Below are positions 51,233 through 63,335 of a stretch of DNA of 64,000 nt, in pieces. The notes under the pieces were generated by a model, which was not told the DNA's origin, did no database searches, and saw only the letters and a list, made by a program, of their open reading frames with translations. A program made the translations under genes and the position numbers. Numbering within the stretch: position 1 is the stretch's first letter; each line of letters begins with the position of its first letter. This DNA comes from Candidatus Dormibacteria bacterium (GTDB lineage: Bacteria > Chloroflexota > Dormibacteria > Aeolococcales > Aeolococcaceae): positions 7,369 through 71,368 of the forward strand of contig JBMFXB010000008.1 of NCBI GenBank assembly GCA_049964715.1, given 5' to 3'.

Positions 51233-51396
51233 GGGAAGAACGTGCCACTCATGGTGACGTGTATCCATCATACAGACTGCATGAAGCGATAGAGAGGCGT
51301 TCATATACTGTATCGTGAGCATCTCGTACAATACAAATGGAACAACATCGTGCAGCGACTACATAGCCTGCTGTGGAGCAAGGGAAGGAGCACCAC

Positions 51397-52524
51397 ATGG
51401 CAATTGATACTCCCGCAACTGAATCATCTGAGCGTCTGGCATTTCCGGAACTTCTGGGAACCGACCATGTTGAACTTTTCGTGGGAAATGCCCGACAGGC
51501 AGCATACTTCTACTCGCGGGCGTTAGGATTTACTGTCATTGCCTATGGCGGGCCTGAGACTGGTATTCGGGACCGGGCATCATATGTCCTCGAACAAGGG
51601 AAGGTCCGCATAGTCCTCACATCTCCCCTTGGACCTGAAGGACCGATTGCACAACACATTGCCCTCCATGGTGACGGGGTTAAGGCAATTGCCCTGCGTG
51701 TTCATGATGCTGAAGCTGCGTACCGTGCAGCAACAGCTCGGGGAGCCAAGGGCATTCAGGAGCCAACCACAGCCAGTGACCGGTCTGGAAATCTCACGTA
51801 TGCCACAATTGCAACGTATGGGGACACCGTTCATCACTTCGTGGCCCGTGATGATTATGCAGGTATCCACTGGCCAGGGTTCCGGGAAGAGACCCGTGGA
51901 AAAGAGAGTGTTGGAGTCCGGTTCATTGACCACACAGTTGGCAATGTTGACAAAGGGAAAATGGATGGCTGTGTAAACTTCTACAGTGAAGTCTTCGGAT
52001 TCACTGTATTCCAGGAGTTTGATGAAAATGACATCGCCACACAATACTCTGCACTCCGCTCGAAGGTAACCCGTGACATGAAGACAATGATTACCTTCCC
52101 AATAAATGAACCTGCTGTTGGTCTCAAGAAGTCGCAGATCCAGGAATACCTTGAGTTCTATCGAGGAGCAGGAGTTCAGCACATTGCGCTACATACTGAT
52201 GACATCATCAGTACTGTCAGTGCAATGCGTGATCGAGGTGTACAATTCCTCTCTTCTACACCGAATGAATACTACGACACTCTGCGTGAGCATTCCTCAG
52301 GCATCGAGGAGGACATCGATGAGCTCCAGCGTCTCAACATCCTCGTTGACCGCGAAGAGGATGGGTATCTTCTCCAACTCTTCACACGACCCGTCACAGA
52401 CCGCCCTACACTCTTCTTTGAGGTCATACAGCGCAAGGGAGCAAAGGGGTTCGGCAAGGGGAACTTCAAAGCTCTCTTTGAAAGTATCGAGCGTGAGCAG
52501 GAAGCCCGGGGCAACCTCGTCTAG
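51397..52524 (+). CDS. hppD: 4-hydroxyphenylpyruvate dioxygenase
   Basis: DHVELFVGNA, IDHTVGNV, PINEP, GVQHIA, LLQLFT, FFEVIQR, GFGKGNFKALF. Confidence 0.96.
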   Translation: MAIDTPATESSERLAFPELLGTDHVELFVGNARQAAYFYSRALGFTVIAYGGPETGIRDRASYVLEQGKVRIVLTSPLGPEGPIAQHIALHGDGVKAIALRVHDAEAAYRAATARGAKGIQEPTTASDRSGNLTYATIATYGDTVHHFVARDDYAGIHWPGFREETRGKESVGVRFIDHTVGNVDKGKMDGCVNFYSEVFGFTVFQEFDENDIATQYSALRSKVTRDMKTMITFPINEPAVGLKKSQIQEYLEFYRGAGVQHIALHTDDIISTVSAMRDRGVQFLSSTPNEYYDTLREHSSGIEEDIDELQRLNILVDREEDGYLLQLFTRPVTDRPTLFFEVIQRKGAKGFGKGNFKALFESIEREQEARGNLV

Positions 52525-52547
52525 CCAGGACAAGGAGCACACACATC

Positions 52548-53729
52548 ATGAGACCATACCGTACACTCGGAGTCATACCGCCAAAACGGCACATGCAGTT
52601 CCGTCCCTCGGGAAATCTTGCATATGAAGAGCTCTTCGGAAGGATTGGCTTCAGTGGCCCTTCCTCACTCCTGTATCACACACATCTTCCGGAATCAACG
52701 CACAAGATTACTCCCGGGAACGAGGACATCTCGCCTCCAGTGCACGAGGATGCACACAGGCAGGCACACTTAAAGGGGATGGATCTTCCCCGTGGTGGCA
52801 ATGTGATCGAACATCGCACCTGGCTACTCGCCAACGATGATATCCGCATTGGCATTGCTGTCCCTGATTCAGGACAATCCCGACTGTATGTGAATGGCTC
52901 TGCAGATGAAGTGTTGTTCTTTCACAAGGGTTCAGGAATCCTTCATTCACAATTTGGCCGCATTGCAATCCGGGAACATGACTACTGTGTCATTCCCCGT
53001 GGAACAATTTATCGACTTGAGATCGATTTGGCTGCAGAACCACGCATCCTCTGCCTTGAAATCACTGGCCTCGTTGAGTCCCCTGCCCGGTACAGGGCGT
53101 ACAATGGCCAACTTACGGAGATTGCACCGTACAGTGAGCGTGATGTCCGTGGACCAGAGGAGCTTGAACATGAGGAGGGAGCAGTTGAACTCCTCGTAAA
53201 GCGTTCCCAGCGGTTCTCAACATACGAACTCGACAACCATCCTTTCGACATCATTGGCTGGGATGGCACAGTGTACCCATACTGCTTCAATATCCATGAT
53301 TTCGAGCCACGTGCTGGTCGATTCCATGTTCCTCCACCCATTCACCAGACCTTTGAGGCTCCGAACCTTGTCATCTGTTCCTTCGTCCCACGAAAGCTAG
53401 ACTGGGATCCTGAAGCACTGTTTCTGCCGTATCATCATTCGAATCTCGACTCTGATGAGGTGCTGTATTACGTGGACGGGAACTACCAGGCACGACGGGG
53501 AATACACCAGGGCTCGTTTACCCACCATGTGGGTGGGCTTCCCCATGGTCCACAGCCTGGAGCTGTCGAAGCGTCCCTCAGCAGAGAGCCTGTGACTGAT
53601 GAACTCGCTGTCATGGTTGACACCTTCCGTCCACTTGGACGCACACAGTCTGCAATCGACATTTCTGATCCAACCTACCCCTTCTCATGGCACAATGCTG
53701 ACCAGGGTGGATCAACGAGTATTCCCTAA
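52548..53729 (+). CDS. hmgA: Homogentisate 1,2-dioxygenase
   Basis: PPKRH, GFSGPSSLLYH, HPFDIIGWDG, HVPPPIHQTF, PYHHSNLDSDE, PHGPQPG; located between hppD and fahA. Confidence 0.92.
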   Translation: MRPYRTLGVIPPKRHMQFRPSGNLAYEELFGRIGFSGPSSLLYHTHLPESTHKITPGNEDISPPVHEDAHRQAHLKGMDLPRGGNVIEHRTWLLANDDIRIGIAVPDSGQSRLYVNGSADEVLFFHKGSGILHSQFGRIAIREHDYCVIPRGTIYRLEIDLAAEPRILCLEITGLVESPARYRAYNGQLTEIAPYSERDVRGPEELEHEEGAVELLVKRSQRFSTYELDNHPFDIIGWDGTVYPYCFNIHDFEPRAGRFHVPPPIHQTFEAPNLVICSFVPRKLDWDPEALFLPYHHSNLDSDEVLYYVDGNYQARRGIHQGSFTHHVGGLPHGPQPGAVEASLSREPVTDELAVMVDTFRPLGRTQSAIDISDPTYPFSWHNADQGGSTSIP

Positions 53730-53845
53730 CTTCTCCAGCATCACGTTATCGTGCACTTCAATACTTCCTGATGTTTGATGCAGAGCAGTACTATCGGTAG
53801 GCAGCTTATGACAGATGTACAGGAATACCATTTGGAGGAAAACAC

Positions 53846-54805
53846 ATGCGCTGGGTAACGTTCACTACCGAACACCACTCATCCCCCCTGTGTGGCATCC
53901 TCATCGGTGATGTTCTCCATGCACTCCCTGAAGAAACCACTCTACTCGATCTCCTCCGGACTCATGGAACAGATCTCGAGGAACCTGCACGCTCTGCAGC
54001 AGTCCATCCATATCTCACTGTTCCCTATGAAGCAGCAACCATTCTTTCTCCCATCCCCAATCCACCAACCATCAGGGACTTCTACTCATTCGAGCAGCAC
54101 GTAAAAACTGCACGAAAACAACGTGGACTCGATATGGAACCAGATTGGTACAACCTTCCTGTCTTCTACTTCACAAACCCTTACGCAACAACAGCTCCAA
54201 ATGCAGATATCCCTGTTCCTCCCGGTACACATGAACTCGATTATGAACTCGAGGTCGCAGCCATTCTCGGCGGAGGAGGTACGAACCTCACTCCGGAGGA
54301 GGCTCAATCACTCATTGCTGGCTACTGCATCATGAATGACTGGAGTGCCCGTGATATCCAGCGAAGAGAAATGAAACTCAGTATGGGCCCCGTAAAAGGA
54401 AAGGACTTTGCCACAACCCTTGGTCCCTGGATGACAACACCAGATGAACTTACTGATCTCGTAAAGGGTCATTCATACGATCTCACAATGACTGCAACAG
54501 TCAATGGAAAAGAGTATTCCCGTGCATCGCTTGCAGATATCTACTGGAGCTTTCCTGAGCTCATCTCATATGCCTCCCGGGGCACAGTTGTCAAACCAGG
54601 AGATGTTATCGGTTCAGGGACGTGTGGAACAGGATGCATCTATGAACTATCCCTTGTTCACGGAACGACCAGATATCCTTGGCTGAAGGAAGGAGATGTC
54701 GTGACACTCTCTGTCGATCGGCTCGGGTCAATCTCAAATCGCATTGTTCGAGGACCTGAGCTTCACGAACTTCGACCACAGGGAGTTATCCATGAAACTG
54801 CATGA
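53846..54805 (+). CDS. fahA: Fumarylacetoacetate hydrolase family protein
   Basis: RDFYSFEQH, LDYELE, NDWSARD, KGKDF, GSGT. Confidence 0.85.
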   Translation: MRWVTFTTEHHSSPLCGILIGDVLHALPEETTLLDLLRTHGTDLEEPARSAAVHPYLTVPYEAATILSPIPNPPTIRDFYSFEQHVKTARKQRGLDMEPDWYNLPVFYFTNPYATTAPNADIPVPPGTHELDYELEVAAILGGGGTNLTPEEAQSLIAGYCIMNDWSARDIQRREMKLSMGPVKGKDFATTLGPWMTTPDELTDLVKGHSYDLTMTATVNGKEYSRASLADIYWSFPELISYASRGTVVKPGDVIGSGTCGTGCIYELSLVHGTTRYPWLKEGDVVTLSVDRLGSISNRIVRGPELHELRPQGVIHETA

Positions 54806-56357: not shown

Positions 56358-56505
56358 ACCTTGATCGTGCAGTGACAGGGCGGACAGGACACGGACAGTG
56401 GACAGTGGGCAGTACTATTTTCCCGTACCAGTCACACTCCCAGCACTTCTGTCCGTGAACTGTCCGCAAGATCCCGATACGATCTACCTACAGTCGAAGG
56501 GAGAT

Positions 56506-57813
56506 ATGGCAGATCACGTGACACAATCCAATCCTGAGGAAGGCCACGATGTGGTACCAACTCAAGTGCAGATTCCGAAGAGTAAGCTAGGGTACCGTCT
56601 CAGGCGCATTGCGGTTGCTGTGACAGTGATTGCTGCTTCGTACCTTGGCTTTCAGGCGTACCGGACTTTCTCCACCCCATATGGAACAATTCCCGCAAGC
56701 TGCAAGGTTAGTCCTCCACCGGGAACTCAATCTGCAATTACTCCTGCACAGGCTTCACAAGCTGCAAGGAAATCTTTCGCAGCTCTTGAAAAGTGTTTCG
56801 GAACAGCAAATGGATCGTTCAGGGGGCTGTATGTTGGTCCTGCAACTGCATGGCCTGAGTCGCAGGGCATGGCTGCACTTCTTGGACTTGGGCGTCTTCC
56901 CAATATGCCACCCTCTCTCCGCAACTCCATTGCCCAACACATGTCGAACCTTGCAGACTACTGGGACAGTGCGCACGGTGGGTACTACCCGGGAGGGAGA
57001 TGGTTCATCTTTGGTGGTGGCGTTAAGAAATATGACGACAATGCATGGATGGGCATGGATCTCCTCGATGCATATAGCCTTACACACAACCATGCATATT
57101 TGACACAGGCAGAACGGGTTGCCACATTCGAAGCTACTGGCTGGTCAAGGAATCAACGTTATCCATCTCCGGGTGGTGTATTTTGGCAGGAGCCGTCAAG
57201 CGGCACTGACAGAAATGCAGTAAGTACAGGAGGAGCTGCCCTTCTCAATGCAGAACTCTACCGCATAACAGGCAAACCTCTGTACAAGGACAGGGCAGAA
57301 CAATATATCGCGTGGACAGTAAATACGCTCACACTCAAAAATGGACTCATAGGAGACCACATTTCAGTTGATGGCACTGTAAGCCCAGCAATCTGGTCAT
57401 ACAACCAGGGACTCGTTATCGCCACATATGCATCACTGTTCTCAACAACTGGCAATAAAGACTATCTCGATGCTGCCAATGCACTTGCCGAAAGGACACT
57501 TTCATACCTTGATACGGGAAGTCGCATGGCTGCAGAGCCGCCCATCTTTGAATCCATCTTCATGCGAAGCCTTGCCAATCTCAATACCATTTCTCCAAGG
57601 CCCGAATACCTCAAAGCCATGCAGAGGTGGGCAACTGTCATGTACAACCACATGGTAAAAGGAACCGGAGTGGTACATGAAGGTCCAGTCAACACTGCTG
57701 CCACTGGCTGGCTCCTCACGCAGGCAGCTGCAGTACAGGCATTCAGCACCTATGCAACTGCTGCAACTGCACAGCATCATTCACCTACCATCTACCAGGG
57801 ATGGGCACTCTAA
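56506..57813 (+). CDS. Glycoside hydrolase family 76 with an N-terminal membrane anchor
   Basis: TM IAVAVTVIAASYLGF; YDDNAW catalytic DD, GGVFW, NAVST, WSYNQG. Confidence 0.85.
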   Translation: MADHVTQSNPEEGHDVVPTQVQIPKSKLGYRLRRIAVAVTVIAASYLGFQAYRTFSTPYGTIPASCKVSPPPGTQSAITPAQASQAARKSFAALEKCFGTANGSFRGLYVGPATAWPESQGMAALLGLGRLPNMPPSLRNSIAQHMSNLADYWDSAHGGYYPGGRWFIFGGGVKKYDDNAWMGMDLLDAYSLTHNHAYLTQAERVATFEATGWSRNQRYPSPGGVFWQEPSSGTDRNAVSTGGAALLNAELYRITGKPLYKDRAEQYIAWTVNTLTLKNGLIGDHISVDGTVSPAIWSYNQGLVIATYASLFSTTGNKDYLDAANALAERTLSYLDTGSRMAAEPPIFESIFMRSLANLNTISPRPEYLKAMQRWATVMYNHMVKGTGVVHEGPVNTAATGWLLTQAAAVQAFSTYATAATAQHHSPTIYQGWAL

Positions 57814-57828: not shown

Positions 57829-59395
57829 TCAGGTGGTCGTGCGGTCCAGGCGATGCATGCACCATACAGCAAGTACAGTTCCTGCAAGCCACAGTCCTGC
57901 AAGGTAGAGGATCCCCTGAAGATCTGGCATTTTGAGGTATGGAGTCCCAAAGGCACTATAAATGGAGAGTTCTGTTATCCACTTGGGCCACTTGAGAACA
58001 TCACTGACAATCATGAATCCGTAGCTCCCTGCCATAAGGAGTATGGGAACAACAATTGCAGTGGGCGTCCGCAATATGACAGCTGATGCTATTCCAACAC
58101 CTCCTACTGCCCCAGCAATGAGCACGATGTCCCACCATGCCCGAAAAATTCCACCTCCAGCAACGGTGAACTTGCCAAAGTGTGATCCGATAACAATGCC
58201 CAGAATTGCTGCACATGCAAAACCCAATGCCACTATTGCAAGTTGCAAGGTTCGTTCCATCACATACCGTACTTCCGTTATTGGAAGACTGAAATCGATA
58301 TCAATCCGGGAACTTGACGCCTCTTGGGACCACGAGGCAACGAGAGTAACAACACAGGCTGTCATGAGGAGGGCAGCGAACGCAAAGATCGAATCAACGA
58401 TGGCACTTTGCACATGGGAAACTGCACCTGAACGTTCAAGGATCGTATGCAAACGTCCTGTCTTGCCAAGAATCCCCCACTTTTGGTCAGTGAGCCAACT
58501 TGTGGTAAATGTACGACGTGAAAGTCTACTCCGATGGAATGGAATGTGATTGACAGCTGCACCCTGCTTTAGATGGAACACCACACCATCAATGTCCCGC
58601 CTCGAATACAGGAAGCCACCAACAACGATTGCAGCACACCTTGCACTAAATGGAATGAAAAGCATGAGTGGATGAAGAACGAGACCCGGAACAAGGCTCC
58701 GTGCATCCTGATAGTAGTAGAACGGTGAGACAAACTTGAGACAGCTGGGCCAGCCGAATGACTGATATGCATTCGCAATGAAATATGACGCCACAAGATA
58801 AATACAGGCAATCCCTGTGGCCATTCGTGTGGTAGCGAAGAATTGGGCAAGGAGAATACCGAAGCCAAGTGCTGTGACAGCAATGACCCCTATTGCAACC
58901 ACCTGGAGTATTGCACTTCCCACAAGATTTGTTTGTGAGACTGCTCCACCTATCACAGTTCCGATATACACCATGACAAGAAGTGCAAGCAAAGTCACGA
59001 TCATTGCACTGCATGCATCAAGAAATACTTCTGTGCGGCCAAGACCTGTACTGATCCAGAGCTGATCGAGACCCTTGCGTTCTCCTCCACGGCTAATGGC
59101 AATCCCCTGGATGACAACGTAGATTGCAACGATGAGACCTACAGTGCAAAGACTTTGTAGCTCAGGTACCCCCCGATCGTATCGAGTCGATCAGCTGGAC
59201 CAGTGAGAATTGCAACACTATCTGCAACCGATTGTGACTGCTTTGCGAGTTCGGAAAGGGACAGGCCAAGAGCGTGCGCAGAAGCAAGATAGGCTGGAGC
59301 AGTTGTCCCAATCATGACTGCAAGTCCAAACCCGGCAAGGACAGCTCCGAGCCAGTGACGACGCATGGACCAGAGAAAAAGTGTCAGGTTACTTG
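57829..59395 (-). pseudogene. ABC-2 type permease, frameshifted
   Basis: Frameshift near 59143: GGYLSYKVFA continues in another frame as VGLIVAIYVV...GGERKGLDQLW; SPFYYY motif; start position uncertain. Confidence 0.75.
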
Positions 59396-60276
59396 AAGTT
59401 CCCAAACTCAGTGAGGAAGATCTCTTTAAGGCTCTTCTCCGCAGAATCGATAGTGAGGATTGTTGCAGGTCGGACTGCATCAAGAAACGGTGTCATGGTG
59501 CCTGCAAGAGTACATGTGATGCGGTGATCTTCCATATAGAGCTCGCTCAGTCCTGGAAGGTGTTCCAGTGCTGTACGGTCCACTTTGCCCTCAATGCGGA
59601 CAGCTACCCTGAGGGACCGTTCGATGAGGAGTTCCTCCATCGTGCCCACCTGTCGTAGCTTCCCACCATGGAACACTCCTACCCGATCACAAAGCTCCTG
59701 AACTTCGGGGAGAACATGCGAGGAGAGGACTATCGTCGTGCCCTGTTCACGCAGGCTCCGCATGAGATACCTGAATCGTTGTTGGATGACAGGATCCAGT
59801 CCACTTGTTGGTTCATCCAGGAAAATAAGCTTCGGACTGTGCATAACGGCCTGAAGAAGCCACAACTTCTGACGATTTCCATGGGAGTATTCGCGATATC
59901 TTCTTCTGAGATCGAGATCAAATTGCGTTGCGAGTTCTGTAATGCGGGCATCAGCAACACCTCCCCGGACATGAGATAGGAGATCGAGAATCTGTGCTCC
60001 TGTCTAATTCGGATAGTCAGGAGCCTCTGCAGGCATGAACCCCGTTTCCTGCTTGATCCTGACACTGTCGCGGACAGCATCCCTGCCAAGGACTGTCGCG
60101 CTTCCACGTGTGGCACAAATGAGGTTCATGAGAAGCCGTATGGTTGTGGTCTTCCCTGCTCCATTGGGTCCCACAAGCCCAAATATCTCTCCCTCGTGGA
60201 TGGTCAGATCGAGATCAAAGATTCCATGGCTGCTGCCATAGTCCTTCGTGAGTCCATGGGTTTCAACGCTTTCCAT
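59389..60276 (-). pseudogene. ABC transporter ATP-binding protein with one in-frame TAG
   Basis: GPNGAGKTT, YSHGNRQK and LDEPTSGLDP lie in one frame, interrupted by TAG at 60004-06 (PN*TG). Confidence 0.85.
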
Positions 60277-60762
60277 CCCTTGATACTAGGCCAGAAGACT
60301 CAATTGTTGTTGATCAGTGTGAGCTTTGCAAGGACACATTCCAGGGCGCATCGCGTCCACCGTATGCTGCTGGGTCTCGGACAATCAATTGGAGGGTCCT
60401 AACACTGCGCTGGCAAAATTCTTCACATTTAGTTCCAATTGCGATCGAGACATCGGAAGCTACTTCCCATGCGAAAAGCAAAGTTCACATCGAGTACTCA
60501 CGTCCCCAAATAGTGTTCCTTGCTTGCAGTTGAACCTGCCACGAGTTTACCCACCCTCCGATCACGCTGGAGATTTTTAATAGAAACAGCCACTGCACGT
60601 TGGAATCAAAGTCTCTTGTATATTGTCGATAGTCGTTCACTTACAAGCACACGTGATTCCGTCAATTCCACCCTCTTCCCTATCATGAAGCTTGAGAGCC
60701 AAATCGAATAGTGACCTGCCACTGCAGTACAGTGGAGAAGAACAAATGTGAAAGGGAAATTG

Positions 60763-61263
60763 ATGCACATGGCACACTCATACTGGACACGACTTCCTGA
60801 TCGGAAGAAGGAACTCCGTGGCATGGTGTTCTGCAGGGATCTTCCTGAACGGTATGCAGGGGGGTTTGTACTCCTTGAATCCCAGCCCTTCCGAATAGGG
60901 CACAATGTCAGCATCCGCTTGAAGGAACAGGACAACGCACTCCTCGTGTATGAGGTCAAAAGAATTGTCACCTACCGTGGTCCTGCAGACTATGTGAAGT
61001 GCATACCATGTGGAAGGGATCTCGACAAGGCGATTTTGTGCGCAAACGAGATTCTTGACACTAATATGGGAGTCCCCAAAACGGGGAAGGTACCTTTCCA
61101 GTTCACACGTAAGGAGCTGGAGCGTTCGCTACTTCGTCACTTTACATTCGCATCTCGCTCCCACCTTCGAGCTCTGGAAGAGCAGCAACGGAAAGACCGT
61201 TTGCATCTGCAGGAACGGATAGCACGGGAGCATGTAAAAGCTGCTGGATTCGAGATTTCCTAA
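60763..61263 (+). CDS. Hypothetical protein ending AAGFEIS
   Basis: About 166-aa ORF with a charged helical tail; RBS-like AAGGGA. Confidence 0.6.
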   Translation: MHMAHSYWTRLPDRKKELRGMVFCRDLPERYAGGFVLLESQPFRIGHNVSIRLKEQDNALLVYEVKRIVTYRGPADYVKCIPCGRDLDKAILCANEILDTNMGVPKTGKVPFQFTRKELERSLLRHFTFASRSHLRALEEQQRKDRLHLQERIAREHVKAAGFEIS

Positions 61264-61275
61264 TCCTGTACATTC

Positions 61276-62781
61276 TCATTTTCCTGCAATGGGATGGAGG
61301 GAAGTCGAAGCGTATGCCTGGGCCTGTACAAAGCCACTTCGTTGTATAAGAGAGTCTGAGTGCATTCCCTGACAGCGGCCAGCATACCCCATGAGAGCAT
61401 CACTGAAGCGGCCATTCGGTGTAGGAAGAACGGAATTGAGATGCTGCAGATTCTTGAAGAAAATGGCATTGAACTTTGCAGGCTGGGAAGCGAAATCTCC
61501 AAAGTGATGTATCGCTGCATCGGCAAGACGGACTCCCTGGTGAAGGTATTCCTCCTTCCCGGTAATTTGGTAGAGTAGTGCAGCGTTTCCGACCATGAGT
61601 CCCTGATTGTAGCTCCAGATATGATGGTCCTTTCCATCCACAATAAGCGGTGAGTTGTGCGCGGACATATTGTGCTGTGTCCAGGAATAGGTATGAATTC
61701 CCCATGCAAGGTCAGCTTGACTACCTGTATGCTTCGCGAGTTCAAGGGCAAGCTGTGCAGCACCAGCTGTCGCTGCAGCACTGACCTTGGTGCGGGTGTC
61801 ATTCCAGAACATTCCCCCACCTTGCATATCCCAGCCAGTACGCTCAAATTTCATAATCTGCTTTGCCCGTACAAGGAATTTTCTCTCCCCTGTCAGGGAA
61901 TATATATTGACAAGATCTATGCCTACCCACGCATTATCATCGTAGAAGGCAAGACTGTGCTTCGTTGAATGTGCCACTGGGTATGGAAGATATGCACCAC
62001 GCTTGGCATCCCAGTATGGTACCAACATGCGAAGAACTCTTCTCAGCTTGCCAACAGCGTAGACATTCTCACCAGGGACAGCTGCCAAGGAAATGAGTGC
62101 CGCAATTTCCTGAGACAGGCTCCAAACTGCTGCCCGGTTGTCAGATCCCCGTGTATCCCGGAGTGAGAGGCCCTTGATATGAAACTCCCTGATAAGGTGT
62201 TCATAGGCCGTACGTGGATTGACAACACTTCCAATTCGGGCAGAGGGTAGGTAATCAGCCCTGGTAGCCATTCCCTCAAGTTCCTGACCAAGAGACTCAA
62301 TCTCTGCATGCTGTCTGGACCGAAGCGATTCCAGTTGCGAGAGTACCTCCTCAATGAAAAGTCGAGTGCTGGAAACTTCTGCATCATCTATCGGACTCGT
62401 CGTATCCAGGCGACTCATAGCTTGTGCAATGAGCTGATGTTTTTCTGCCTCACACGAGGCAACAGTCTGGTGTGTTCCGTGAAGTGCACCCAGGGCATCT
62501 CTGATTGCAGTGGAAGTCCCAGCACATCGCTCCTGCATACCGGAAACGTGCTGCAATGCAGCAATTGAAGCAACACCCTTCCAGTTTGAAACAACTTGCT
62601 GAATCCCACCAACTACATGCGCATGTCTAGACTGTTCATCTGCGATTCCACTTAACACACGCAGTGTTTCGGTGACAGGATCGAGATGGAATGGCTCATG
62701 CTCCATCGAAGTCTTCCAGCGCTCTATCTGTTGGCGACATTCTGCAAGCACATGCACATTGTGCAAATCCGAAGCAATCAT
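61276..62781 (-). CDS. WxG-motif helical N-terminus fused to a GH76 glycoside hydrolase; putative T7SS substrate
   Basis: VVSNWKGVAS within a long helical N-terminus; FYDDNAWVG, GGMFWN, WSYNQG; no signal peptide; ATGA overlap with the WXG100-like gene. Confidence 0.8.
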   Translation of the reverse strand: MIASDLHNVHVLAECRQQIERWKTSMEHEPFHLDPVTETLRVLSGIADEQSRHAHVVGGIQQVVSNWKGVASIAALQHVSGMQERCAGTSTAIRDALGALHGTHQTVASCEAEKHQLIAQAMSRLDTTSPIDDAEVSSTRLFIEEVLSQLESLRSRQHAEIESLGQELEGMATRADYLPSARIGSVVNPRTAYEHLIREFHIKGLSLRDTRGSDNRAAVWSLSQEIAALISLAAVPGENVYAVGKLRRVLRMLVPYWDAKRGAYLPYPVAHSTKHSLAFYDDNAWVGIDLVNIYSLTGERKFLVRAKQIMKFERTGWDMQGGGMFWNDTRTKVSAAATAGAAQLALELAKHTGSQADLAWGIHTYSWTQHNMSAHNSPLIVDGKDHHIWSYNQGLMVGNAALLYQITGKEEYLHQGVRLADAAIHHFGDFASQPAKFNAIFFKNLQHLNSVLPTPNGRFSDALMGYAGRCQGMHSDSLIQRSGFVQAQAYASTSLHPIAGK

Positions 62782-63083
62782 GCTGATCGAACCCCACTCA
62801 CCTGCCGTTCTGTTTCCATGTATGCTGCTGCTGCTTCCTCAAGTGCAATAGCCAGAGCCAACATGCCTTCAGCTGTGCGATGGAGAGCTTCACTCCACCG
62901 AGAAGTAAATACGTTGACACCACCTCTTGCTGAAGTCTCGCCAAGTTCACTCGAAAGATGTCGTTCGACATCAGAAAACTGAGCGCACATTGCCTGTTGC
63001 TCAGCCGCACATTTCTTCAGTTCACTGGCTGCAGCAAGGAGCGTATCTGGAGTGACTGCTATTTGACTTGAATTTACGCTCAT
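62778..63083 (-). CDS. WXG100/EsxA-like protein
   Basis: 101 aa; IAVTPDTLLAAA start; helix-turn-helix hairpin; C-terminal AAAAYMETE (YxxxE). The WxG itself is degenerate. Confidence 0.75.
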   Translation of the reverse strand: MSVNSSQIAVTPDTLLAAASELKKCAAEQQAMCAQFSDVERHLSSELGETSARGGVNVFTSRWSEALHRTAEGMLALAIALEEAAAAYMETERQVSGVRSA

Positions 63084-63247: not shown

Positions 63248-63335
63248 GGAGGGATGCCGGAGCGGTCGAACGGGGCGGTCTTGAAAACCGTTAAGGTGCA
63301 AGCCTTCTAGGGTTCGAATCCCTATCCCTCCGCCA
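63248..63335 (+). tRNA. tRNA-Ser(TGA)
   Basis: GGAGGGA/TCCCTCC acceptor stem, CTTGAAA anticodon loop, variable arm, GGTTCGAATCC, GCCA end. Confidence 0.95.

Follow-up and report, generated by a model that had tools for sequence, protein, structure and literature searches.

Here, we propose that two overlapping genes of a Candidatus Dormibacteria bacterium encode a substrate pair of a type VII secretion system (T7SS), and that the cargo this pair would carry out of the cell is an alpha-1,6-mannanase of glycoside hydrolase family 76 (GH76). The genes lie on the minus strand of contig JBMFXB010000008.1, within the 64,000-nucleotide stretch that was analysed (hereafter the window, in which all positions are given unless another contig is named). 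The upstream gene specifies a protein of 101 amino acids (aa), a WXG100-like helical hairpin that lacks a WxG of its own (62778..63083), and the downstream gene a protein of 501 aa in which a helical N-terminal domain (N-domain) is joined to a GH76 domain (61276..62781). The source genome is assembled to 1.92 Mb in 65 contigs, with 51% GC (guanine plus cytosine) and 92% completeness. Our proposal is based on the anatomy of the pair, its conservation within the genus, a modelled heterodimer, the T7SS machinery encoded in the genome, and the family matches of the C-terminal domain. Taken whole, we give it about an even chance of being right. Its parts carry different weight: it is likely that the pair is a T7SS substrate, slightly more likely that the GH76 domain is an active alpha-1,6-mannanase (given its membership of that family), and somewhat to be favoured that the target is non-self (given secretion).

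The gene pair and its modelled complex

The stop codon of the small gene overlaps the start codon of the large gene in the sequence ATGA (62778..62781, minus strand), so placed by the coordinates of the open reading frames (ORFs), and the two genes are, to judge from their sequence, translationally coupled, as an earlier note on this DNA had described. Conservation was assessed in a sample of 41 genomes, the source genome among them, drawn from its family and order; every zero count among the other 38 genomes of the family and order takes in four that are flagged as unpublished (G004, G027, G032, and G036). The fusion protein occurs in 3 of the 41 genomes, the complete set of three from the genus, and this query did not recover it from the remaining 38. 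Adjacent genes for a small helical partner and a substrate, as T7SS substrate pairs require, are present and overlap by ATGA in each of the three, and the congeners share one gene order: a gene of 100-101 aa, a GCATGA junction (kept in 3/3), a 501-aa gene, and an ORF of about 165-173 aa that converges on it. The pair, the ATGA junction, and the WxG, YxxxE, and DD motifs described below are retained throughout the genus at a protein identity of 60-70%. Ratios of nonsynonymous to synonymous substitution (dN/dS) are 0.11-0.27 in the small gene; within the large gene they are 0.10-0.13 over the N-domain and 0.08-0.12 over the GH76 domain. Synonymous sites are near saturation, and one of the nine comparisons was not computable. 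Because the pair and its motifs are conserved and dN/dS is low, both genes are functional, under purifying selection, and not chance frames. Of 17 matches to the 501-aa protein in a word-indexed search of 5.8 billion proteins, only two are full-length relatives, at 96% and 70% identity; the remaining 15 cover the GH76 half alone.

At 101 aa, the small partner has the length of a WXG100 helix-turn-helix (about 100 residues with a whole-model match), and PF06013, the Pfam model of that family, aligns to it over model positions 1-85 of 86. Its orthologues in the two congeners score 30.7 and 28.6 bits on PF06013, above the cut-off of 27.3. Matches of the small protein itself to the PPE, EspC, and WXG100 families are weak, the PE model (PF00934) gives no match beyond one orthologue at E 0.88, and a profile search for relatives recovered only the three orthologues. 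The segment AAAAYMETE, with which the earlier note had the protein end, is present but occupies residues 84-92, nine residues before the C-terminus rather than at the very end. It contains the sole YxxxD/E-type match of the small protein, Y88xxxE92 (codons Y88-M-E-T-E92 at 62808..62822, minus strand), of which Y88, E90, T91, and E92 are invariant in all three orthologues. The small partner may serve as a co-substrate or escort, in the manner of PE, Lap, or Tap proteins.

The large protein begins with an all-helical domain (residues 1 to about 190; 62212..62781, minus strand), which we propose to be the T7SS-targeting and partner-binding domain. In its AlphaFold 2 (AF2) monomer model, helices are predicted at residues 3-27, 33-47, 53-66, 70-84, 90-127, and 133-177. 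The motif NWKG stands at residues 66-69, and its WxG (codons W67-K-G69 at 62575..62583, minus strand) falls in the turn between the helices 53-66 and 70-84, with W67 and G69 invariant in a five-row alignment of four distinct sequences. The helical N-terminus with NWKG had been recognised from the letters alone and stands, at a domain length of about 190 aa. So does the claim that a Sec or Tat signal is lacking: by a scan for hydrophobicity and twin arginines, neither protein of the pair has an N-terminal hydrophobic segment, a membrane segment, or a twin arginine. With a WXG100-family partner bearing a C-terminal YxxxE on one side and a WxG-bearing helical N-domain on the other, the T7SS substrate-pair anatomy of the earlier note is borne out. 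An exhaustive HMMER search with residues 1-200, run on 1.84 billion representatives, recovered nothing beyond the N-domain's own cluster. Atlas feature matches of the N-domain (to WXG100, PF22905, and PF21725 clusters) score at most 0.87, below the level that, for this tool, marks more than a lead.

The AF2 monomer model of the 501-aa protein has a mean predicted local distance difference test (pLDDT) score of 61.9, and residues 28-93 of the N-domain fall below 50; such low values in the partner-binding helices, modelled without the partner, are compatible with a domain that requires one. Complexes were modelled from residues 1-200 of the large protein and the small protein, each with a shallow orthologue alignment of 3-4 rows. 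The heterodimer gave an interaction prediction score from aligned errors (ipSAE) of 0.77, 0.77, and 0.78 in three runs, against 0.00, 0.00, and 0.18 for three controls, with a partner pLDDT of 80 and at least 75% of contacts agreeing between runs. In the complex-model check that the earlier note had suggested, the pair passes its controls (0.77 against 0.18 for the best control), at a pass mark that 58 of 80 solved complexes attain, as do 2 of 110 mismatched pairs, and that is only approximate for shallow custom alignments. The modelled interface comprises residues 30-100 and 158-182 of the large protein and residues 10-84 of the partner, and the listed contacts 1:46-2:32, 1:53-2:25, 1:85-2:70, and 1:89-2:66 indicate antiparallel packing. 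By extrapolation, and not as a listed contact, the WxG turn (67-69) would lie beside partner residues of about 86-88, where YxxxE begins. The model supports a heterodimeric helical bundle, which is a statement of likeness and not of binding.

Secretion machinery and the GH76 domain

The genome encodes an EccC-type protein of 1319 aa with three FtsK/SpoIIIE domains, which scores 715 bits on TIGR03924 (EccCa; cut-off 509) and 728 bits on TIGR03925 (EccCb; cut-off 347), and 604.5 bits on the EssC model, below the cut-off of 778.4. The gene directly after it specifies a 368-aa membrane protein with matches to YukD (E 3.4e-15) and, below threshold, to EccD (E 1.5e-14); the two genes lie outside the window, on contig C10 (39830-44925). 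The earlier note had made its reading depend on a T7SS ATPase in the genome, and refutation on that ground fails because EccC, above both NCBIfam cut-offs, is encoded here beside an EccD/YukD-like protein. Full-length EccC-like frames occur in 10 of the 41 genomes, eight of them above the cut-off; all ten genomes belong to the same family and include all three of the genus. Since a family search of the genome yielded neither EccB (PF05108) nor YukC/EssB (PF10140), the T7SS looks minimal, or else its other parts may be too diverged for detection. Among the scanned neighbours of EccC there was no EspG, mycosin, or EccE (no family search was aimed at these three), and no WXG100 gene is adjacent to it.

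Other WXG genes are present in the genome. One is a canonical WXG100 gene (E 3.6e-22). A second pair, on contig C24 (5737-7683), consists of a 101-aa WXG100/EspC-like protein with a Y..E tail and a 539-aa protein with a WxG at about residue 77, the C-terminal part of which has no Pfam or PDB (Protein Data Bank) sequence match; atlas feature matches of this pair to T7SS_signal and LXG-toxin clusters (0.85-0.89) are leads only. A third pair, on contig C61 (1-1187) and cut by the contig end, consists of a 117-aa WXG100-like protein and a larger one (at least 273 aa), whose N-terminus contains CNWKG and lies above the cut-offs of both WXG100 (E 3.4e-9) and PPE (E 1.4e-7, 32.2 against 26 bits).

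The C-terminal part of the fusion protein (residues about 205-501; 61279..62169, minus strand) is a GH76 catalytic domain by its match to PF03663 (Glyco_hydro_76; E 3.4e-26, 93.1 bits, cut-off 25.9), which covers residues 266-430 and spans only model positions 74-258 of 366, the remainder of the domain being diverged. YDDN is found at residue 280 and WSYNQG at residue 389. The best sequence matches among solved structures are 4mu9_A (E 2.7e-21) and 4c1s_A (E 8e-17), and FYDDNAW of the GH76 domain aligns to YYDDNIW and FYDDNVW of the solved chains, which sets D281-D282 (codons at 61936..61941, minus strand) on the catalytic DD motif of 4mu9 and 4c1s. Both aspartates are invariant in the orthologues. 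The PF03663 match and the DD alignment bear out the GH76 assignment that the earlier note had made for the C-terminal domain. In published accounts, two adjacent aspartates form the GH76 catalytic pair, D124/D125 in Aman6 and D96/D97 in LamH (PMC11233589, PMC12295086). GH76 enzymes, which are endo-alpha-1,6-mannanases or transglycosylases, fold as an (alpha/alpha)6 toroid. A Foldseek search with the low-confidence monomer model (mean pLDDT as above) gave 29 matches at E<=1e-3, of which those listed are GH76 structures.

With the Pfam GH76 model, the tally across the relatives is the same as for the fusion protein (3 of 41 genomes), with two copies in each. The second copy in the window is a 471-aa gene (56398..57813, plus strand; PF03663 E 9.6e-33) that lies 3.5 kb from the pair, is 34% identical to the GH76 domain of the fusion, and is present in the same three genomes. 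Because its N-terminal segment is moderately hydrophobic (residues 70-88, KD19 of 1.30, below the usual 1.6), this second GH76 protein probably reaches the outside or its anchor by an ordinary route. A tree of 31 GH76 domains, the sampling of which is biased to matches of the fusion query, supports the fusion clade at 100/100 and the anchored clade at 100/100 but joins the two as sisters at only 80/57, with long branches; an old duplication is a possible origin of the fusion's GH76 domain. At the level of the phylum, 15 of 201 sampled genomes have GH76, and within the same class only this genus does. The GH76 ORFs listed in six inspected loci of that sample start with hydrophobic, signal-like N-termini, and none of them has a helical WXG-type N-domain. 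Separately, several of the nearest GH76 relatives of the fusion's catalytic domain (P0004, P0005, P0006, P0009, P0010, and P0011) have no hydrophobic signal peptide and carry hydrophilic N-terminal extensions, with DD at about residues 127-191; these relatives may be exported by non-Sec routes too.

Proposed role, known systems, and rival explanations

If the pair is a T7SS substrate, what might it do? As modelled, the 101-aa WXG100-family protein would bind the helical N-domain of about 190 aa to form an elongated helical bundle, in which the partner's C-terminal YxxxE would adjoin the WxG turn and so complete a two-part signal that an EccC-type ATPase could recognise. The EccC/EccD-like machine encoded on the other contig would then export the complex without a Sec or Tat signal, and outside the cell the GH76 domain, its DD motif intact, would cut alpha-1,6-mannan backbones. 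The substrate would more likely be another organism's polymer than the producer's own, such as glycans of the actinobacterial lipomannan/lipoarabinomannan (LM/LAM) type or fungal mannan. On this proposal, the pair would be a GH76 counterpart of EatA, a mycobacterial T7SS arabinanase toxin. In its most specific form, an effector directed at alpha-1,6-mannan in another organism's envelope (the lipomannan/LAM layer of soil Actinomycetota or the mannoprotein coat of fungi), the proposal is one that we consider less likely than not.

T7SS effectors have long been regarded as mainly nucleases, NADases, lipases, and pore formers. In line with that, the earlier note considered a glycan-cleaving T7SS warhead unusual, a view now dated by EatA of Mycobacterium abscessus and relatives, an ESX-4-dependent GH183 endo-D-arabinanase toxin; because EatA was published in 2026, a glycan-cutting T7SS cargo is no longer unprecedented (PMC13444075). 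As described there, a helical N-domain of about 182 aa precedes the GH183 domain in EatA, two small helical Tap proteins (TapA1/TapA2) are encoded upstream, toxicity to other mycobacteria depends on ESX-4, a lipoprotein inhibitor (EatI) is encoded downstream, and the housekeeping GH183 paralogues carry Sec signals (PMC13444075). The accompanying payload survey gives alpha/beta hydrolase, HNH/ENDO, NlpC/P60, and TNT as the commonest payloads, and GH76 is not among them (PMC13444075). Set against this description, the likeness is considerable in outline: both effectors fuse a helical N-domain of about 180-190 aa to an envelope glycoside hydrolase, with the small partner gene or genes directly upstream, and in both the effector lacks a Sec signal while paralogues of the same glycoside hydrolase family have conventional export signals (a probable one here). 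They differ in enzyme and substrate (GH183 and D-arabinan there, GH76 and, presumably, alpha-1,6-mannan here), in the number of partners (two there, one here), in the downstream lipoprotein immunity gene (none here), and in host (Mycobacteriales there, Dormibacteria here). Moreover, the Dormibacteria N-domain has no detectable sequence relatives, and the two systems are likened by published description and not by sequence. A downstream secreted immunity protein of the EatA type was not found, the convergent ORF described below having neither signal peptide nor membrane segment.

Other T7SS substrates offer further points of comparison. In PE/PPE and Esx pairs, the YxxxD/E motif and the WxG motif together serve as a two-part secretion signal. 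Our pair resembles PE/PPE and EsxA/EsxB in having the YxxxD/E near the C-terminus of the small partner, the WxG in a helix-turn-helix of the other chain, and adjacent genes; it differs in that the large N-domain has no match to PPE (PF00823) at E<=1 and the small protein none to PE, and in that EccB was not found. The LXG toxins and their Lap partners in the T7SSb of Bacillota share its order of domains, with an N-terminal helical targeting domain, a variable C-terminal enzyme, and small helical partners encoded upstream, as they are described in the EatA paper (PMC13444075). Against this, the large protein has no match to LXG (PF04740) at E<=1, its motif is WxG and not LxG, no immunity gene accompanies it, and the ATPase of this genome scores higher on EccCa/EccCb (715/728 bits) than on EssC (604.5).

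On the enzyme side, the best solved relatives are the Bacteroides thetaiotaomicron GH76 endo-alpha-1,6-mannanases (4mu9_A and 4c1s_A), to which the DD motif aligns at a Foldseek identity of about 18-24%. These are Sec- or lipoprotein-exported members of mannan-utilisation loci, and unlike the fusion they have no T7SS-type N-domain. LamH (Rv0365c) is a mycobacterial GH76 hydrolase of LM/LAM that acts on the producer's own glycans and reaches the envelope with no detectable signal sequence (PMC11233589). It shares with the fusion the DD motif, the lack of a detectable signal, and an expected action in the envelope or outside the cell. The comparison is again by published description, in which LamH is presented without a helical N-domain or WXG partner and as a housekeeping enzyme across Mycobacteriales, in contrast to a GH76 confined to one genus here.

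The target is the point at which other explanations enter. Downstream of the fusion gene no co-oriented gene is found among the window ORFs, in agreement with the earlier note's statement that no co-oriented immunity gene follows; the nearest gene 3' (60748-61263, plus strand) is convergent and ends 13 bases from the GH76 stop. This absence is as compatible with a non-toxic exoenzyme or a self-remodelling enzyme as it is with a non-self target. One alternative is that a T7SS-exported GH76 trims the cell's own alpha-1,6-mannan lipoglycan or glycoprotein, in which case an immunity protein would be unnecessary. The source genome has six genes of the GT87 family (on contigs C35, C13, C29, C1, and C47), which we take to be polyprenol-phosphate-mannose-dependent mannosyltransferases, and each of the 40 relatives has 2-14 of them (41/41 genomes in all), which suggests that mannose-containing envelope glycans are general in this lineage. 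LamH, acting on LM/LAM, is a precedent for a signal-less GH76 that reaches the envelope (PMC11233589), and both GH76 genes of the window lie among housekeeping genes at a GC content equal to the genome's. On the other hand, GH76 was not found in any of the 38 other genomes of the family and order, all of which have GT87, so that GH76 mannan trimming is not a general need of the lineage, and a conventionally anchored GH76 paralogue is already encoded 3.5 kb away. We consider self-remodelling unlikely. The restriction of GH76 to 3 of 41 genomes, all of this genus, argues against a housekeeping role conserved across the lineage, which favours the non-self target.

A foraging exoenzyme, for which the T7SS would be a mere export route and oligomannosides from fungal necromass a food, with no antagonism involved, appears to us rather improbable. 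The best solved relatives are Bacteroides enzymes that act on yeast mannan, the genome has one GH38 alpha-mannosidase-like gene, and no immunity gene was found, all of which would suit such a role. Against it, neither GH92 nor GH125 turned up in the genome (92% complete), so that a full pathway for foraging on mannan is less likely, and no sugar-utilisation genes lie nearby, the sole nearby transporter being an ABC-type gene that is apparently split. The least probable of the alternatives, in our estimation a poor prospect, is that the pair is not secreted at all, the N-domain and the small protein forming a cytoplasmic coiled-coil scaffold or regulator whose WXG100-like scores are the weak matches typical of helical hairpins. 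In its favour, the window's own small protein and N-domain fall below all curated cut-offs, the N-domain is a sequence orphan, and the pair is unlinked to eccC. Yet the small protein has two orthologues above the WXG100 cut-off, the WxG and YxxxE motifs do not vary and stand at their expected structural positions, and the genome has EccC and other WXG pairs. We know of no cytoplasmic substrate of GH76. Where the action of GH76 enzymes is described, it is on the mannans of fungal cell walls and of the mycobacterial envelope (PMC11233589, PMC12295086).

Several observations weigh against our proposal of a T7SS-exported mannanase with a non-self target. All of the support is computational, and the organism is uncultured. 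On PF06013 the small protein of the window reaches only 22.6 bits, and on NCBIfam TIGR03930 only 23.4 bits (E 5e-5; cut-off 44.85); nor has it a central WxG, the motif being on the large partner, as in PE/PPE pairs. Membership of the N-domain in the WXG100, PPE, or LXG families, for which the earlier note had suggested a search, is not demonstrable by sequence, the WXG100 model matching two of the three orthologues at E 0.0098-0.074 and the third not at all at E<=1. Comparison by hhalign of the N-domain with the genome's two other large WXG proteins gives E 0.12 and 0.039, and although not significant, the alignment of the GH76 pair with the other pairs does set the WxG turns of the large proteins in register, and likewise the Y..E tails of the small ones. 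None of the YxxxE residues appears in the confident contacts of the complex model, and the pass of that model, with alignments of only 3-4 rows, may in part be due to likeness to known complexes, because those of Esx, PE-PPE, and LXG-Lap are already solved. EccB and YukC/EssB are missing from the family matches, as noted above, and the machinery genes are unlinked to the GH76 pair. With six GT87 genes in the genome, the substrate may instead be a mannan of the cell's own, and the GH38-like gene makes some use of released mannosides possible. Finally, toxicity is unsupported because no immunity gene was identified, unlike the case of EatA and EatI.

What is new here is the combination of a GH76 cargo, an orphan N-domain, a single partner, a missing immunity gene, and a Dormibacteria host. 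Our literature search found no publication linking GH76 or a mannanase with type VII secretion, and none linking Dormibacterota with it. The first glycan-cutting T7SS effector, the arabinanase EatA, dates from 2026 and is described in mycobacteria only (PMC13444075). A GH76 cargo in Dormibacteria would therefore make glycanase payloads a wider theme of type VII secretion, with alpha-1,6-mannans as a target layer. Should the target be non-self, glycan-cutting T7SS weapons would have arisen independently outside Mycobacteriales, and should it be fungal, we would know of no earlier T7SS effector aimed at the cell wall of a eukaryote. The pair would also provide a first functional handle on the minimal EccC/EccD-type T7SS of an uncultured soil lineage, and one explicit solution to the export of GH76 without a recognisable signal, as in the published description of LamH. 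It is small and readily testable in vitro.

Surroundings of the pair

The convergent gene 3' of the fusion is an orphan ORF of 171 aa (60748..61263, plus strand), always adjacent and convergent to the pair and found in the same 3 of 41 genomes only. It has no Pfam or PADLOC match, no signal peptide, and no membrane segment; its low-confidence model (pLDDT 65.9) is rich in beta structure over the N-terminal half, has a long helix at the C-terminus, and gives no Foldseek match in the PDB at E<=1e-3. As an accessory or immunity protein we regard it as a weak candidate, since its strict co-occurrence with the pair is weak evidence: genus-restricted genes co-occur anyway. Upstream, the pair is bounded by a tRNA-Ser gene (UGA anticodon; 63248..63335, plus strand), and a tRNA-like stretch lies upstream of the pair in the two congeners, where it is visible in ORF translations only. 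A scan of the locus for promoters and terminators gave nothing above shuffled expectation.

The genes around the pair are those of tyrosine catabolism, a cytidine deaminase, DsbA, and an ABC transporter. A mannan-utilisation locus was considered and rejected, the neighbours including no sugar-utilisation genes, and recent horizontal transfer has no compositional signal (GC of the pair 0.50, against 0.516 for the window). The tyrosine-catabolism run (51373-54805, plus strand), just upstream of the GH76 region, is ordinary and comprises an HPPD-like dioxygenase, a homogentisate dioxygenase-like protein, and a fumarylacetoacetate hydrolase. Between the second GH76 gene and the pair, a 391-aa polytopic membrane protein without a Pfam match (57829-59004) adjoins an ABC-transporter ATPase (59389-60276, minus strand) that seems to be split into two ORFs in different frames, one of 90 aa for the N-terminal part (ABC_tran) and one of 158 aa for the C-terminal part, which could reflect a frameshift, a pseudogene, or an assembly error.

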